Positions 8,932 to 61,466 of a stretch of DNA of 64,000 bases are shown one piece after another. The DNA comes from an uncultured Acidobacteriaceae bacterium (lineage in GTDB: Bacteria; Acidobacteriota; Terriglobia; Terriglobales; Acidobacteriaceae): the NCBI GenBank assembly GCA_963849545.1, contig CAWKID010000003.1, positions 298,016-362,015 on the forward strand. The letters run 5' to 3'. A program made the translations under genes and the position numbers. Positions within the stretch are counted from its first letter, which is position 1. The number at the start of each line of letters is the position of its first letter. The notes beneath the pieces are model-generated. The model did no database searches, was not told where the DNA came from, and saw nothing but the letters and a program-made list of their open reading frames with translations.

Positions 8932-9008
8932 GCGCCCGTAGCTCAGCTGGATAGAGCGAACGCCTCCGGAGCGTTAGGTCGGGAGTTCGAATCTCTCCGG
9001 GCGCGCCA
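8932..9008 (+). tRNA. tRNA-Arg (anticodon CCG), CCA encoded
   Basis: Manual cloverleaf. Acceptor GCGCCCG/CGGGCGC. D arm GCTC-AGCTGGATA-GAGC. Anticodon arm AACGC-CTCCGGA-GCGTT (CCG at positions 34-36). T arm GGGAG-TTCGAAT-CTCTC. Discriminator G + CCA. Confidence 0.95.
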
Positions 9009-23338: not shown

Positions 23339-23665
23339 TTATTGCTGCTTCATCTGGTCCTGCGACTTCGAATTGTCGTTCTTCATATTGTCGTTCGACA
23401 TGTTGTCATGTTTCATGTTGTCGTTTTTCATCGAGTCACCGGACGAACTCTTCTTGTTCGACTTTTTCTTGCTCGAGGACTTCTTGTTGTTCTGCGACAT
23501 GTTGTCGTTCTTCATGCTGTCGCCCTTCATGTTGTCATTCTTCATCGAGTCGCCGGACTGCATCTGATCCTTGCTGCTGTCCTGCTTCATATTGTCCTGC
23601 GCGAACAACGACATGGAACCGGCCAGCATGCACATGGCCATGATGCTCATGATCTTCTTCTTCAT
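23339..23665 (-). CDS. secreted Met/Lys/Asp-rich pentapeptide-repeat protein (MXKDX-type)
   Basis: MKKKIMSIMAMCMLAGSMSLFAQ signal peptide, then DSMKN/DNMKG/DSMKN/DNMSQ...DSMKN/DNMKH/DNMSN/DNMKN repeats around a KKSSSKKKSNKKSSS spacer. Confidence 0.8.
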   Translation of the reverse strand: MKKKIMSIMAMCMLAGSMSLFAQDNMKQDSSKDQMQSGDSMKNDNMKGDSMKNDNMSQNNKKSSSKKKSNKKSSSGDSMKNDNMKHDNMSNDNMKNDNSKSQDQMKQQ

Positions 23666-52231: not shown

Positions 52232-53270
52232 TTGATTCAACCAACTCTCACCGATCTCACCAAAACATCTTTCGATCCCGAGCTCTCGCCGGGCGCCCAC
52301 AACGCGGTCAATACCTGCCTCCGCATCCAGCCGTCGGAGAAGGTCACGGTCATCACCGACAACGAATGTCGCGAGATCGCCGCCAGCATCGCCGCCGAGT
52401 TGCAGAAGCTGGGCGCGCCCTTCAAGGCGTTCGTGCTGGAAGACCTGGCGCCGCGCCCGCTGACCGACCTGCCGCGTGAGATCGCCGAGGACATGGAGAC
52501 CAGCGACGTCTCCATCTTCGCCGTCAAGGTGCAGCGCAACGAGCTGAAGTCGCGCATGCAGATGACCGACATCGTCAATCGCCGCAAGATGCGCCATGCG
52601 CACATGGTGAACATCAACAAGCAGATCATGCTGGAAGGCATGCGCGCCGACTACGACAAGGTCGACGCCATCAGCCGCAAGGCGATGGAGATCGTCACCA
52701 ACGCTAAGGAAGTTCGCTGCACCAATCCCGCGGGCAGCGACTTCACCGCCAAGCTCAATCCCAACTATCCACTGGATCAAGACCAGCGGCATCATCAGCC
52801 GCGACAAGTGGGGCAATCTTCCCGGCGGCGAAATCTTCACCACTCCCGGCGAAGTCAACGGCATCTGCGTGGTCGACGGCGTGGTCGGCGATTATCTTTG
52901 CGAGAAGTATCAGGACCTGACGCGCCAGCCGCTGACCATCGAGATGAAGAACAACCGCATCACGAAAGTGTCGAGCGACAACAAGGAGCTGGAGCAGGAG
53001 TTCTGGGCCTACACCCACACCGACGAGAACAGCGACCTGGTGGGCGAGTTCGCTATCGGCACCAACATCGAGCTGACACACGTCATCGGGCAGATCCTGC
53101 AGGACGAGAAGTTTCCCGGCATCCACATCGCCTTCGGCAATCCCTACGGCGAGCACACGGGCGCAAACTGGTATTCGGCGACGCACATCGATGTGGTGGG
53201 CACGCAGTTCAACATCTGGGTTGACGGTCGCCAGATCATGGAGAAGGGCCGCTTCCTGATCGAGGCCTGA
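52232..53270 (+). pseudogene. M29-family (aminopeptidase T/PepS-like) aminopeptidase, one +1 frameshift near 52776
   Basis: ..VTVITDNECREIAASIAAE..SIFAVKVQRNE..HAHMVNINKQIM.. Then after removal of one C (TATCCAC) comes YHWIKTSGIISRDKWGNLPGGEIFTTPGEVNG..VVDG..GEFAIGTN..ILQDEKFPGIHIAFGNPYG. Confidence 0.8.
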
Positions 53271-53272
53271 CC

Positions 53273-54468
53273 ATGATTCCCGCCCTTCGCGAGGAATTCA
53301 ACCGCAACTACACGCCGGAGAAATACCGCGAGTTCCTGCGTGCGCTCGACGCCGCCAGCGGCACGCACATCGGCTTTCGCGTCTCTGAGACGCCGTGCTT
53401 CGTGCCCTACTCGCTGATCTCGCAGATGGCGGAGTACGGCCGCGAACTGGTTTCGCAACTGGTCGACAATCCCGACTACCGCAAGCTCTCCGATGTCGAC
53501 GATCCCGCCGGAATACAACGTCCCCAACGAAGCGCCGCTGCCGATGTTCGTGCAGGTCGACTTCGGAGTGGTGCGCAACGCGTCGGGCGAGCTTGAGCCG
53601 AAGCTGGTCGAGTTGCAGGCCTTCCCTTCTCTCTACGGATATCAACCCACGGCGGCGCATCAGTACGTCCGAGTCGTACGGCCTGTCGCGCGATCTTGGG
53701 ATTTACCTGAGCGGCTGCGATCGCGATGCCTACTGGCGGCTGATGCGGCAGCTCGATCGTCGGCGATCACGATCCCGAGAACGTCATCCTGATGGAGATC
53801 GATCCCGACAACCAGAAGACGCTGCCGGATTTTCTGATCACGCAGCGCGAGCTGGGCATCGCCATCGTCGACATCCTGAAGCTGATCAAGCGCGGTAACA
53901 AGCTGTTCTACAAGAAGGACGGTCGCGAAATCGAAGTCCGCCGCATCTACAACCGCTGCATCGTCGACGAACTGGAGCGCAAGACAGATCAAGCTGCCTT
54001 TCGATTTTCGCGACGAGCTCGATGTGGAATGGGCGGGCCATCCCAACTGGTACTTCCGCATCAGCAAATTTTCAATTCCCTACCTCAAGCACCCCTCGGT
54101 GCCGAGGACGTGGTTTCTCGATCAACTTCCGGCCTTCCCGGAAGATCACGAAAACTTCCTGCTGAAGCCGCTGTATTCGTTCGCCGGCGTGGGCATTAAA
54201 TTCGCTCCCACTCCGTCAGACATCGAGGCGATCCCCGAAGACCAGCGCCACAACTACATCTTGCAGGAACGGCTGCAATTCGAGCCGGTCATCGAGACGC
54301 CGCACGGTCCGACGCAGATGGAGATCCGCATGATGTATCGTCTGGCCCGAGGGCGGCCAGCTGACGCCGGTGTTGCCACTGGTGCGCATGGGCCGCGGCA
54401 TCATGATGGGCGTCGACCACAACAAGAATCTGGAATGGGTTGGCGGGTCGGCCGCGCTGCTGGCGTAG
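53273..54468 (+). pseudogene. hypothetical ATP-grasp-like ligase (glutathionylspermidine-synthase / circularly-permuted ATP-grasp-like), 5 +1 frameshifts
   Basis: Starts 2 nt after the M29 stop. Re-framed sequence: MIPALREEFNRNYTPEKYREFL..ETPCFVP..PKLVELQAFPSLYGYQ..ENVILMEIDPDNQKT..EIEVRRIYNRCIVDEL..WAGHPNWYFRISKFSIPYL..FLLKPLYSFAGVGI..YILQERLQFEP..RMGRGIMMGVDHNK..*. The family call is inference from the KP..S.AG.GI and E.D/IYNR pattern. Confidence 0.5.
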
Positions 54469-54686
54469 AAAGCGCATAACACCACGGCGAACACGAGGCC
54501 GGCAACAACCCTTCGCCGAAGACCTCTCCAGAATTATCGTCTCGAATCGTAGCGGAGGGATCAACGGTTCTCGCGCCGCAAAGGAAGCCACTTCCGTTCT
54601 GGGAACCATTTTTGATTTTTCTTAGATCAACTTGCTAACGTCACTGACAACCGTTTTTCAGTCGGCTATATTTCGCACTAACGTAA

Positions 54687-55040
54687 GTGTAGGCCACGCT
54701 CCATAGGGGCATCGCCAGAAGAGGCGTATCCAGCCCCGCTGAATACCTTTCCTTCCTTTGAGGAAATGATGGACGTGTGAGTCGCGCCCCTTGAGGGCGA
54801 GTGACAAAGATATAACCACCCCCACAGAAAAACCTCCTCCGTCTGAGGAGTTGACGAAAGTGTGACCTACGCCCCCTCAAGGGGACCGTCTAAAACACGC
54901 ATACCAACCCTTACAAATAGCCTCCTCATTCTGAGGAGATAGCAGAGGTGTGAGCCACGCCCTTAACCGGGCATCGTCATGAACGCGTAACTAACCTCAC
55001 GAAAACAATCCTCCTCCTTCCGAGGAGTGCGGAGAATAAC
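54687..55040 (+). repeat. four tandem ~85-88-nt units, each with two conserved hairpins; candidate structured 5' leader / cis-regulatory RNA of the downstream gene
   Basis: Unit starts are GTGTAGG 54687, GTGTGAG 54775, GTGTGAC 54860, GTGTGAG 54948 (next phase GTGCGGA 55027). Hairpin 1 is GC(T/C)CC-loop-GGGGC-like. Hairpin 2 is (C/T)TCCT(C/T)-5 nt-GAGGA(G/A). The last hairpin 2 ends 15 nt before the ATG. Stops occur in all frames. Confidence 0.6.
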
Positions 55041-55041
55041 C

Positions 55042-56820
55042 ATGAACCATAACCGGGTTACATATGTTCTTCTTCCATTGTTATTTCTGGCCTGCGTGAG
55101 TTGGGCCCAGACGCCGTTAACCTTTGTTCCGGCCGGACCGTGCCGAGTAGTCGATACCAGACTAGCTCCCGGTACGTTAGGTGGACCATTTCTCGCAGCC
55201 GGAGCCACCCGCGACTTCCCGTTACCTACTACCCCCAAGTGTGCCATTCCAAGTACCGCCCAGGCCTATGCGCTGAATGTGACGGTAGTGCCGCATGGCT
55301 ACCTGGGCTACATCACGTTGTGGCCGACCGGCCAGAACCGGCCGACCGTCTCCACGCTGAATTCGTTCGATGGACGATTCAAAGCCGTGGCCGCAATCGT
55401 ATCCGCGGGCACGAACAATGCTGTCAGCGCGTACACCTCCAACAATACTGACCTCGTTCTGGATCTCGTCGGCTACTTCGTAGGACCCGGCAATCCGAGC
55501 GCGCTGTATTATCATCCGCTGAAAAACTACTGCGAACTGATTAACACAAACGATCCCCCGAACCAAAGTGGCTTGGGCGGACCGGCATTATCTGCCGGGG
55601 TAGCGCGCAGCTTCCAGGTGAACAACACGATGAACTGCTCTCTTCCCTGGGATGCAATGGCCTATTCGCTGAACGTCACCGCAACACCCGCCAATGGACA
55701 TCCATTGGGATATATCACGGTCTGGCCTTCCGACCAGGCGCAGCCGCTTGTTTCGACGCTTAACGCACCCACGGGGACGACAGTATCGAATGCCGCCATT
55801 ATTAAGGCGGGAACCGGCGCCATCTCCATCTATGCTGACGCCGATACGAACGTCGAGGTATACCTGAACGGATACTTCGGTCCCGACAATCCGCCCTATA
55901 CCGATGCCTTCTACACGTTTAAACCGTGCCGTGGGCTTGACACTCGGCCGTACAACTTTGAACAGCGCTTCGACTATATCCTGCAGCAGATGGGCGGCTG
56001 CCAGTCGACTCTGCCGGTGATCGCACCAGCAGATATACCTCCAGTCACAGCCTTCGCGCTGAATGCGACACTGGTTCCAAATGCCGGTGTGGGCTACTTC
56101 CCGATCTGGCGGCACGACCAGCTCATGCCAACTCCTTCCACCCTGTATGCACTGGATGGCGCGGTCACTTCCAATATGGCGATCGTTCCAGCAACGCCAT
56201 TTACTGGACAGATTTCTGCCTATTCAAGTGCTGCAACCAACCTTCTGTACGATGTGTTCGGGTATTTTGCCAGTCCCGATCTGACGATCCTCACTCAGCC
56301 CTCAATGATTCCTGCCATGACAGCACATGTGCCTTTCGAGGCCATGACGATGCAGGCCCGTGGTGGCGTTCCGCCGTACCAGTGGTTCGGCGTCGGGATG
56401 CCGGCTGGTCTGAGCGTCGACAAGAACACAGGAACAATCAGTGGATGCCCGGTGAACATGGGTGGTAACCCAATGGTGATCTGGGTAAATGACGCAGCGG
56501 GTACGTGGCACAACATGAACCACCTCTACAATCTCCCGGTGCTGCCTGGACTGAACATTAATCAGGCAGGGGCGCTGCCGGACGGCTATCACAACCACTA
56601 TTACTCGGAAACCCTGGACTGCAGCGGCGGCCTAGCTCCATACGGTTGGACCCTGGTCGGCGGAAGCCTGCCGTCTGGCTTGACGTTAAGCGCTGATGGG
56701 GTAATCTCGGGCTTTGCTACGAATCCGGGAACCTGGACCTTCACGGTTCAAGTTGCGGATAACGAGTGCCCGAGTCCTAAGACTCACCAGCACAATTTGT
56801 CAATCCATATACAGAACTAA
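55042..56820 (+). CDS. secreted protein with three 'PCRVVDTR' modules and two C-terminal Ig-like (He_PIG-type) repeats
   Basis: MNHNRVTYVLLPLLFLACVSWAQ signal peptide. Module 1: PCRVVDTRLAPGTLGGPFL..AQAYALNVTVVPHGYLGYITLWPTGQNRPTVSTLN..LVLDLVGYF. Modules 2 and 3 are diverged (..AMAYSLNVTATP..ITVWPSDQAQPLVSTLN.. / ..PCRGLDTR..AFALNATLVP..). Ig-like repeats: GGVPPYQWFGVGMPAGLSVDKNTGTISG and GGLAPYGWTLVGGSLPSGLTLSADGVISG. Confidence 0.85.
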   Translation: MNHNRVTYVLLPLLFLACVSWAQTPLTFVPAGPCRVVDTRLAPGTLGGPFLAAGATRDFPLPTTPKCAIPSTAQAYALNVTVVPHGYLGYITLWPTGQNRPTVSTLNSFDGRFKAVAAIVSAGTNNAVSAYTSNNTDLVLDLVGYFVGPGNPSALYYHPLKNYCELINTNDPPNQSGLGGPALSAGVARSFQVNNTMNCSLPWDAMAYSLNVTATPANGHPLGYITVWPSDQAQPLVSTLNAPTGTTVSNAAIIKAGTGAISIYADADTNVEVYLNGYFGPDNPPYTDAFYTFKPCRGLDTRPYNFEQRFDYILQQMGGCQSTLPVIAPADIPPVTAFALNATLVPNAGVGYFPIWRHDQLMPTPSTLYALDGAVTSNMAIVPATPFTGQISAYSSAATNLLYDVFGYFASPDLTILTQPSMIPAMTAHVPFEAMTMQARGGVPPYQWFGVGMPAGLSVDKNTGTISGCPVNMGGNPMVIWVNDAAGTWHNMNHLYNLPVLPGLNINQAGALPDGYHNHYYSETLDCSGGLAPYGWTLVGGSLPSGLTLSADGVISGFATNPGTWTFTVQVADNECPSPKTHQHNLSIHIQN

Positions 56821-61037: not shown

Positions 61038-61466
61038 TTACTGCGGAGTTGGCTTCGTATCGGTGCTCTTCTTCTTGTCGTCCCCGAAGACCTTCTTAGT
61101 GGCATGTCCAACATCCTTGCCGGCGTCTTCGGTACCTTTACCGACATCCTTAGCGCCAGTTTCCGTGCCCTTACCTACGTCCTTGGCGCCAGTCGCGGTC
61201 GCATGGCCAACGTCCTTGCCGGCGTCCTTGGTTGCATGTCCGGTAGCTTTAGCACCCTTTTCGGTTGCGTGACCAGTGTCTTTGGCCGCGGTCTTGGTAG
61301 CATGTCCTGTGTCCTTAGCGCCGGTAGCGGTCGCATGGCCAACATCTTTGCCGGCGTCCTTGGTGGCATGTCCGGCGTCCTTCATGTCCTGTTTCGCAGT
61401 GTCCTGTGCGACGGCCACACCAACCGCCAGGCCACCCGCAAGCAGAATGAGTCCTAGTTTGTTCAT
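61038..61466 (-). CDS. secreted protein made of eight 11-residue repeats (KDxGHAT-xxGA type), LEA-like periodicity
   Basis: MNKLGLILLAGGLAVGVAVAQ signal peptide, then KDAGKDVGHAT/ATGAKDTGHAT/KTAAKDTGHAT/EKGAKATGHAT/KDAGKDVGHAT/ATGAKDVGKGT/ETGAKDVGKGT/EDAGKDVGHAT and a Lys-rich tail. The underlying 33-nt DNA repeats keep several frames open on both strands. Confidence 0.75.
   Translation of the reverse strand: MNKLGLILLAGGLAVGVAVAQDTAKQDMKDAGHATKDAGKDVGHATATGAKDTGHATKTAAKDTGHATEKGAKATGHATKDAGKDVGHATATGAKDVGKGTETGAKDVGKGTEDAGKDVGHATKKVFGDDKKKSTDTKPTPQ

Follow-up and report, generated by a model that had tools for sequence, protein, structure and literature searches.

A putative 5′ leader in four tandem copies upstream of a predicted secreted-protein gene of an uncultured Acidobacteriaceae bacterium

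The window analysed here, a 64,000-nt stretch of contig CAWKID010000003.1, encodes on its plus strand a 592-aa protein whose start codon at 55042 is preceded by a long intergenic gap. The initial annotation had put this gap at 570 bp, which we correct to 572 nt, running from the stop codon at 54467-54469 to the ATG at 55042. Direct reading of 54300-55300 resolved positions 54687-55034 into four head-to-tail units of 88, 85, 88 and 87 nt, with the start-to-start spacings of 88, 85 and 88 nt that had been reported for the array. Each unit carries two hairpins, and the last one ends on the Shine-Dalgarno (SD) sequence of the gene. The features on which the analysis draws are as follows.

54644-54672, plus strand: promoter-like site CTGACA-17 nt-TATATT, the sole sigma-70-like site in 54300-55200
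54687-54774, plus strand: unit 1, 88 nt, directly adjoining the promoter; hairpin 1 at 54698-54710 (GCTCC-ata-GGGGC), hairpin 2 at 54748-54766
54775-54859, plus strand: unit 2, 85 nt; hairpin 1 at 54785-54799 (CGCCC-cttga-GGGCG), hairpin 2 at 54834-54850
54860-54947, plus strand: unit 3, 88 nt; hairpin 1 at 54873-54884 (CCCC-tcaa-GGGG), hairpin 2 at 54922-54938
54948-55034, plus strand: unit 4, the last, 87 nt; hairpin 1 at 54959-54972 (GCCC-ttaacc-GGGC), hairpin 2 at 55011-55027; its 3′ end is the real SD, GGAG, at 55031-55034
55042-56820, plus strand: secreted-protein gene, 592 aa, with a signal-peptide-like N-terminus, three modules of ~135 aa and two He_PIG Ig-like domains
55062-55075, plus strand: pyrimidine tract AUAUGUUCUUCUUC in the coding region, the predicted main partner of the SD, with contacts at 55069-55071 (3′ end of the folded constructs)

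The three module copies, each of the form PCRVVDTR ... LWP ... STLN ... GYF, make up the first 430 aa of the protein (window 55042-56331). This module returned no sequence match in Pfam, NCBIfam or PDB; it has thousands of homologues in Acidobacteriota metagenomes, fused to many different C-terminal domains. Orthologues of the protein begin MNRNQV or MNRSQV at the matching ATG, and the neighbouring DAHP synthase has no exact match on record. Upstream of the array, two genes at 52232-54469 are broken relative to their intact orthologues on L006, one of the related metagenomic contigs: an M29-family aminopeptidase is split over two frames at ~52765, and a 396-aa protein is split over at least three frames, its first 244 residues matching L006 at only 57%. 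Either the two genes are pseudogenes, or the breaks in them are indel errors of long-read assembly. Single-base indel errors may also be present in the array; the downstream protein is exactly matched by an independent contig. Two further repeat tracts lie elsewhere in the window. On the minus strand, 61038-61466 is an ORF of 142 aa with a signal-like N-terminus and 22-aa repeats rich in KDAGHATK/KDVGKGTE, and a 66-nt tandem repeat (61179-61382, 3.1 copies) falls inside it; judged from its sequence, the ORF may specify a small secreted repeat protein. At 23372-23554, Tandem Repeats Finder reported a cluster of 15-nt and 30-nt tandem repeats resembling ATTGTCGTTCTTCAT.

The same program did not report the leader array, because its units are too diverged. 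A repeat search did recover families at spacings of 85, 88 and 89 nt, with repeats 77-86% identical. Mean column identity in a four-way alignment of the window units was 72%, and pairwise the units are 63-70% alike, against 50 ± 2.5% for shuffled units by the same measure. Allowing up to three mismatches, GTGTGAGCCACGCCC marked the four unit starts and nothing else across the whole 64 kb window, and CTCCTC-N5-GAGGAG occurred at 54834, 54922 and 55011 only. A sequence profile and a covariance model each found all four units, with E values of 1e-13 to 1e-17 that are to be read in the knowledge that these units were in the training set, and neither found a further copy in the window. Built from eight units and searched against 149 kb, comprising the window and 18 related and paralogue loci, the covariance model recovered all units and nothing else.

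Both hairpins that the initial annotation had drawn are present in all four units, hairpin 1 with the very sequences that it gave. Hairpin 2 reads TTCCTT-ccttt-GAGGAA in unit 1, where 7 bp are possible at 54748-54766 (UUUCCUU-ccuuu-GAGGAAA), and CTCCTC-N5-GAGGAG in units 2-4; its loops from unit 1 to unit 4 are ccuuu, cgucu, auucu and cuucc. The reported change of the outer pair from C-G to T-A in unit 1 is real, and the inner pair of that hairpin is also altered, to a U.G wobble. Every copy thus shares a 5′ motif, GUGUGAGCCAC, followed by a G+C hairpin, a C/A-rich linker and a CCUCCUC:GAGGAG hairpin. RNAalifold recovered both hairpins, while the folding energy of whole units was not unusual (z from -0.6 to -2.5). 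A small middle hairpin of 3-4 bp after GGGCAUCG is found in some units only. The minimum free energy (MFE) folds of units 3 and 4 showed GUGUG of the 5′ motif in a long-range helix with the linker, which we rejected because it used non-homologous columns. In the last unit of an 87%-identical orthologue (L005, 1-60), an insertion replaces hairpin 1 with a longer two-tier hairpin, ACGCCUUCC...GGAAUC...GAUUCU...GAAGAGGCGU, which is unusually stable (z = -3.1).

Upstream of the units, the block TCACWGACA-N~17-GCTAYAKT-..AACG, which contains the promoter-like site, is kept in seven related loci, among them L023 and two that are non-syntenic, L019 and L020. From this site, transcription would start at about 54679-54682, and conservation of the promoter suggests that it continues through the array. 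No plus-strand terminator-like site was found in 54300-55200; minus-strand terminator-like matches at hairpin 2 were set aside, there being no convergent gene for them to terminate. Its position between a conserved promoter-like site and the ATG of the secreted-protein gene makes the array very probably the transcribed leader of that gene, in agreement with the initial annotation.

The relatives with which the locus could be compared were few and all of them metagenomic contigs. Three (L006, L007 and L017), syntenic with the window and encoding proteins 59-77% identical to its own, hold one unit each, in the order promoter, single unit, SD, ATG.

L006, 3905-3991: single unit
L007, 178-261: single unit
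L017, 1647-1732: single unit

A promoter-plus-leader profile of these three loci aligned to window 54638-54766, that is, to the promoter and unit 1 (E = 1.9e-12), and the intergenic gap of 572 nt in the window compares with 349 nt in L006 and 317 nt in L017, an excess of about three units. On these grounds the unit is nearly the whole ancestral 5′ untranslated leader of the gene at 55042, extending from a few bases past the putative transcription start to the SD region. The initial annotation had overlooked both this identity of the unit with an entire ancestral 5′ UTR and the differences in copy number among relatives.

More than one unit was found in three places. The window has four; L023, a syntenic contig of 8.8 kb that probably derives from long reads because it contains indel errors, has a complete array of two; and L004 (protein 89% identical) shows at least two, the end of the contig falling inside the repeat. 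An ERR12040025 short-read contig encodes an identical protein behind a gap of 573 nt and, for these two reasons, very likely has the four units of the window too. L003 and L005 end ~90 nt upstream of the ATG. More generally, the short-read contigs L003, L004, L005/L008 and L018, which bear close orthologues, have their ends within the start codon or some 90-165 nt before it, which is consistent with assemblers breaking at a repeated leader and so hiding its copy number.

Comparison of individual units speaks to the age of the array. Unit 4 of the window (W_u4) is 83% identical to the second unit of L023 (L023_u2) and 75% identical to the corresponding unit of L004 (L004_uB), against 66-70% to its own siblings; within L023, the two units are 69% identical. 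By sequence, the last units are orthologous across genomes. Since siblings are only 63-70% alike, compared with 83% for the last units of distant loci, the duplication is old, and the earlier view that it was not a recent event is borne out. Flanking proteins of L023 are 71-80% identical to those of the window, and a 119-aa in-frame fragment of the upstream 396-aa gene is 80% identical between window and L023, versus 90-92% between window and L017 or L006; by flanking proteins, L023 is thus farther from the window than the single-unit loci are. Orthology of the last units, together with this greater distance of L023, indicates that the duplication predates these splits. The one-unit state may then be a secondary contraction, the alternative being independent expansions. 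In either case the array is old and fairly stable and not a fast-changing repeat.

The junctions between units resemble TTGACG|AAAGTGTG, and the leader has a microhomology, ACGGA(A/G), at its 5′ end and again at the SD (TGACGGAG); the junctions are consistent with recombination at this microhomology. None of the five internal junctions retains the real SD, which has decayed there to GGAC, GAAA, AGAG, GGCA and AGAA. At four of the five, the SD-like GAGGAG, which is GAGGAA in unit 1, is followed at a distance of 9 nt by GUG-UGA, a start codon with a stop directly behind it.

Window 54766-54780: GUG-UGA junction
Window 54851-54865: GUG-UGA junction
Window 54939-54953: GUG-UGA junction
L023, 1695-1709: GUG-UGA junction

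These could be by-products of the junctions or sites at which ribosomes are parked; unit 1 itself opens with GUG-UAG. Three-codon mini-ORFs lie in the middle of some units, namely AUG-AAC-GCG-UAA (window 54978-54989), AUG-AGC-GCC-UAA (L023 1734-1745) and AUG-AAG-GCA-UAA (L004 15-26). We rejected upstream mini-ORFs as a conserved feature, as they are absent from window units 1-3, the last unit of L004, and L006. An in-register likeness between CCTTAACCGGG (54961) and the coding-region CCATAACCGGG (55047) is compatible with chance, given the number of comparisons.

Mean pairwise identity among nine units from the window, L023, L004 and L003 differs sharply between parts of the unit. The arms of hairpin 1 score 0.79 and its loop 0.35; the arms of hairpin 2 score 0.82 and its loop 0.55; the 5′ motif stands at 0.79 and the linker at 0.61. 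Internal units show the same pattern of arm and loop conservation as the last unit, the GTGTGAG 5′ motif is conserved in each unit, and units 2-4 share exactly the same CCTCCTC and GAGGAG arms around differing loops. In a structure-guided alignment of 11 sequences, standard pairs filled 86.8% of pair cells and 92.4% of those in hairpin 2. These counts are slightly conservative, since the model placed the 6-nt loop of L004 out of register. As a control, displacing the 3′ partner by 1-3 columns lowered the proportion to 53-65%.

Evidence that pairing as such has been selected is less sharp. Four pairs changed on both sides, a number matched by 28 of 500 shuffles, and the covariation score was 0.233 against 0.179, reached by 14 of 500 shuffles, with the tool's own caveat that related sequences can attain such levels without structural constraint. 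A strand asymmetry between G.U and A.C pairs (9 vs 5) was too slight to serve as evidence and is partly an alignment artefact for L004. Given this weak covariation and the invariant CUCC/GGAG core, selection could have acted on sequence instead of pairing. Hairpin 2 is present in all relatives, with a loop of 3, 4, 5 or 6 nt, a variability more in keeping with an RNA stem than with a protein operator. Hairpin 1 has no counterpart at the matching position in L006, L007 and L017 and is degenerate in L023 unit 1; it is therefore a later addition to the module and cannot have been essential to what the ancestral leader did. The proposal of selection on structure stands in part: nearly every unit has retained both hairpins, their arms conserved and their loops free to vary, but the covariation behind it is weak and hairpin 1 is missing from three relatives.

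Several accounts of the array compete with a role of the leader in cis, and one of them had been put forward for the last hairpin, which lies just before the start codon. As a translational gate, its CCUCCUC would switch between the decoy GAGGAG and the real GGAG under the control of temperature, a ligand or a trans-acting factor. Some MFE folds do pair upstream pyrimidines with the SD below hairpin 2 (3 bp in W_u4, 4 bp in L006 and 7 bp in L007), and in L020, which has no decoy, CUCC pairs with the real SD. The conserved hairpin, however, pairs CCUCCUC with the decoy and leaves the real GGAG outside, 3 nt downstream. In partition-function folds of 11 constructs the real SD is mostly paired, its usual partner being the UUCUU tract in the signal-peptide codons, and a similar coding-region partner is predicted in L004, L005, L018, L019 and L020. 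Shuffling the upstream leader left SD accessibility within the shuffled distribution for all 11 constructs, which makes the predicted pairing independent of the leader. What the conserved hairpin pairs is a decoy, and predicted accessibility of the SD is nearly flat between 15 and 37 °C, unlike the behaviour of an SD-sequestering riboregulator or RNA thermometer. A gate would also concern the last unit only and leave the conservation of internal units unexplained. The folds thus do not bear out the gating claim; the last hairpin is probably not a translational gate, and we regard this reading as improbable. Less probable still is a source of trans-acting RNA or a sponge, in which units would yield anti-SD small RNAs of ~87 nt, like cuckoo/CcsR, or their GGA hairpins would titrate a CsrA-like RNA-binding protein. 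The repeated two-hairpin CCUCCUC modules are superficially cuckoo-like (PMC4615179), and there are six GGA triplets in about 350 nt. Yet CCUCCUC is base-paired in a stem instead of being exposed in a loop, the GGA triplets are all in stems or in the linker and none in loops, the plus strand offers no terminators between units, and no Rfam family matches. Comparably remote, and the least credible of all, is an array of DNA operators, inverted repeats bound by a dimeric transcription factor and serving as four roadblocks or loop anchors downstream of the promoter. Three perfect inverted repeats, CTCCTC-N5-GAGGAG, at spacings of 88-89 bp would suit it, as would the 5′ motif conserved in each unit. 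Against it, half-site spacing varies from 3 to 6 bp among relatives, too much for a dimeric operator; the pairs include G.U wobbles, which exist in the plus-strand RNA only; and the sites would lie at +60 to +350, downstream of the transcription start.

The main rival is a near-neutral old minisatellite: the leader would have been duplicated by unequal recombination or slippage at ACGGA(A/G), with idle extra copies that merely inherited their hairpins. It accommodates the variation in copy number and the three lineages with one unit, the decay of the real SD at every internal junction, the weak covariation and the ACG microhomology at junctions such as TTGACG|AAAGTGTG. Idle copies would, however, be expected to decay evenly, and here decay is non-uniform in internal units too, with arms at 0.79-0.82, loops at 0.35-0.55 and the linker at 0.61. 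The hairpin 2 arms of units 2-4 have stayed identical next to differing loops, and the units, old as they are, still fold. We consider this explanation unlikely, though it deserves more weight than the three preceding ones.

We favour a functional, cis-acting repeated leader, to which we assign a probability of roughly 0.55: copies that are old and have each kept two hairpins probably still act at the RNA level. Given the one promoter-like site and the lack of any plus-strand terminator-like site in 54300-55200, the whole array would be transcribed as one leader of ~360 nt from a single conserved promoter and act in cis as RNA. The parts under constraint are the same in internal copies as in the copy at the start codon, so the job of the module may be independent of its position in the leader. 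Sequestration of the real ribosome-binding site is probably not that job, and a protective or recruiting module appears more likely. The stem-loops and the silenced SD-like sequence might delay attack of the leader by ribonucleases, or the unpaired C/A-rich linkers might be standby sites for 30S subunits. Either way, stability of the mRNA for the exported protein, or its translation, would improve with the number of units. Besides the weak covariation, the unexceptional folding energies and the absence of hairpin 1 from the single-unit relatives, two observations count against such proposals: the SD-like GAGGAG is base-paired in every unit, which disfavours a role like that of a free stabilising SD (STAB-SD), and hairpin 1 starts ~11 nt into each unit and not at the 5′ end. 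We judge any single molecular mechanism to be much less likely than a general cis-acting role. More speculatively, and in our estimation doubtful, the unit might be a new self-contained cis-regulatory RNA module of Terriglobia-like Acidobacteriota, position-independent, whose copy number (1, 2 or 4) would serve as an evolutionary dial for secreted-protein output. The 5′ motif, G+C hairpin, C/A-rich linker and SD:anti-SD clamp of such a module would, for example, recruit an RNA-binding protein, a factor that blocks ribonucleases or a 30S subunit, and ribosomes could be parked at the GUG-UGA junctions of the leader.

If the extra units are functional, the locus would be a natural case of expression tuning by multiplication of the whole 5′ UTR as a module, distinct from a change of promoter or ribosome-binding site. 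The Acidobacteriota, for which, to our knowledge, very few RNA elements have been characterised, would also gain an uncatalogued leader motif. The natural alleles with 1, 2 and 4 units offer a simple series on how leader architecture relates to mRNA stability and translation. If instead the extra units are neutral, the array is an ordinary old minisatellite, and one that still breaks short-read assemblies at this gene (L003, L004, L005).

Among catalogued elements, none was recognised in the leader. At gathering thresholds, the 4227 Rfam models matched only a tRNA at 8932-9005 in the window, and a permissive scan of 54400-55150 gave only sub-threshold chance matches, the best being CRISPR-DR24 with 19.8 bits against a cut-off of 35 (E = 0.52). 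The array accordingly matches no Rfam family at either threshold, as the initial annotation, which had recognised no known riboswitch class in it, would predict; Acido-1 and Acido-Lenti-1 are covered if they are among these models. A CRISPR array was rejected, the sequences between hairpins being homologous across units and the repeats only 77-86% identical. Across 185,579 species genomes, the window's own not included, the unit pattern had two matches, each a single unit in an unrelated genome. A metagenome scan with the N-terminal 300 aa of the protein gave nine loci, eight of which were paralogues or internal domain matches without an upstream unit. With no further copy in the 64 kb window or the 18 related and paralogue loci, the unit is not a dispersed repeat of the REP/BIME, MITE or MIRU-like kind, the mobile origin that the initial annotation had named as a danger to its reading. 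A literature search found no relevant precedent for a tandemly repeated anti-SD leader.

Known systems resemble the array in some respects each. Intergenic minisatellites (VNTRs, including mycobacterial MIRUs) consist of head-to-tail units of 40-100 bp whose copy number differs between lineages, and MIRU-type units occupy many loci per genome. The array shares the head-to-tail intergenic layout, the homology of units and the lineage-dependent copy number that define a minisatellite; unlike MIRU, its unit is found at one locus in the window and the 18 loci searched, and is old, diverged (63-70%) and differentially constrained. Tandem riboswitch aptamers and tandem T-boxes likewise place copies of a structured module in series within one 5′ UTR. 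The likeness is one of layout only, with module copies in series between promoter and start codon: the array has no conserved ligand-binding core, expression platform or Rfam match, its unit is the entire ancestral leader, and its copy number varies among close relatives. In ROSE and fourU thermometers, an intramolecular duplex of anti-SD and SD-like sequence lies next to the start codon. As in these and other SD-sequestering hairpins, an anti-SD-like:SD-like duplex adjoins the start codon here, but it holds a decoy and not the functional SD, and no temperature dependence is predicted.

Two documented systems come closer in sequence or in logic. The cuckoo RNA family (RSs0680/CcsR, C14 and others) comprises free-standing alphaproteobacterial small RNAs, in which CCUCCUCCC is displayed in the loop of each of two to four adjacent hairpins (PMC4615179). 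The array likewise has two to four adjacent hairpin modules with an anti-SD-like CCUCCUC(CC), but here CCUCCUC lies in an mRNA leader and is, in every unit, the 5′ stem arm of hairpin 2, paired to GAGGAG; membership of the family was rejected on that account. By analogy, the nearest documented logic would be that of the STAB-SD of cry3Aa, where, in the statement of PMC12970973 that cites Agaisse and Lereclus (1996), an SD-like sequence in the 5′ UTR far from the start codon stabilises the mRNA. In both cases, as far as that statement describes cry3Aa, an SD-like sequence stands in the 5′ UTR at some distance before the true ribosome-binding site, and the gene encodes an exported or abundant protein; the STAB-SD described there (PMC12970973) is single and free, whereas the SD-like sequence of the array is present four times and is predicted to be base-paired. 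Set beside these systems, the array is an uncatalogued, lineage-restricted, tandemly amplified structured 5′ leader.
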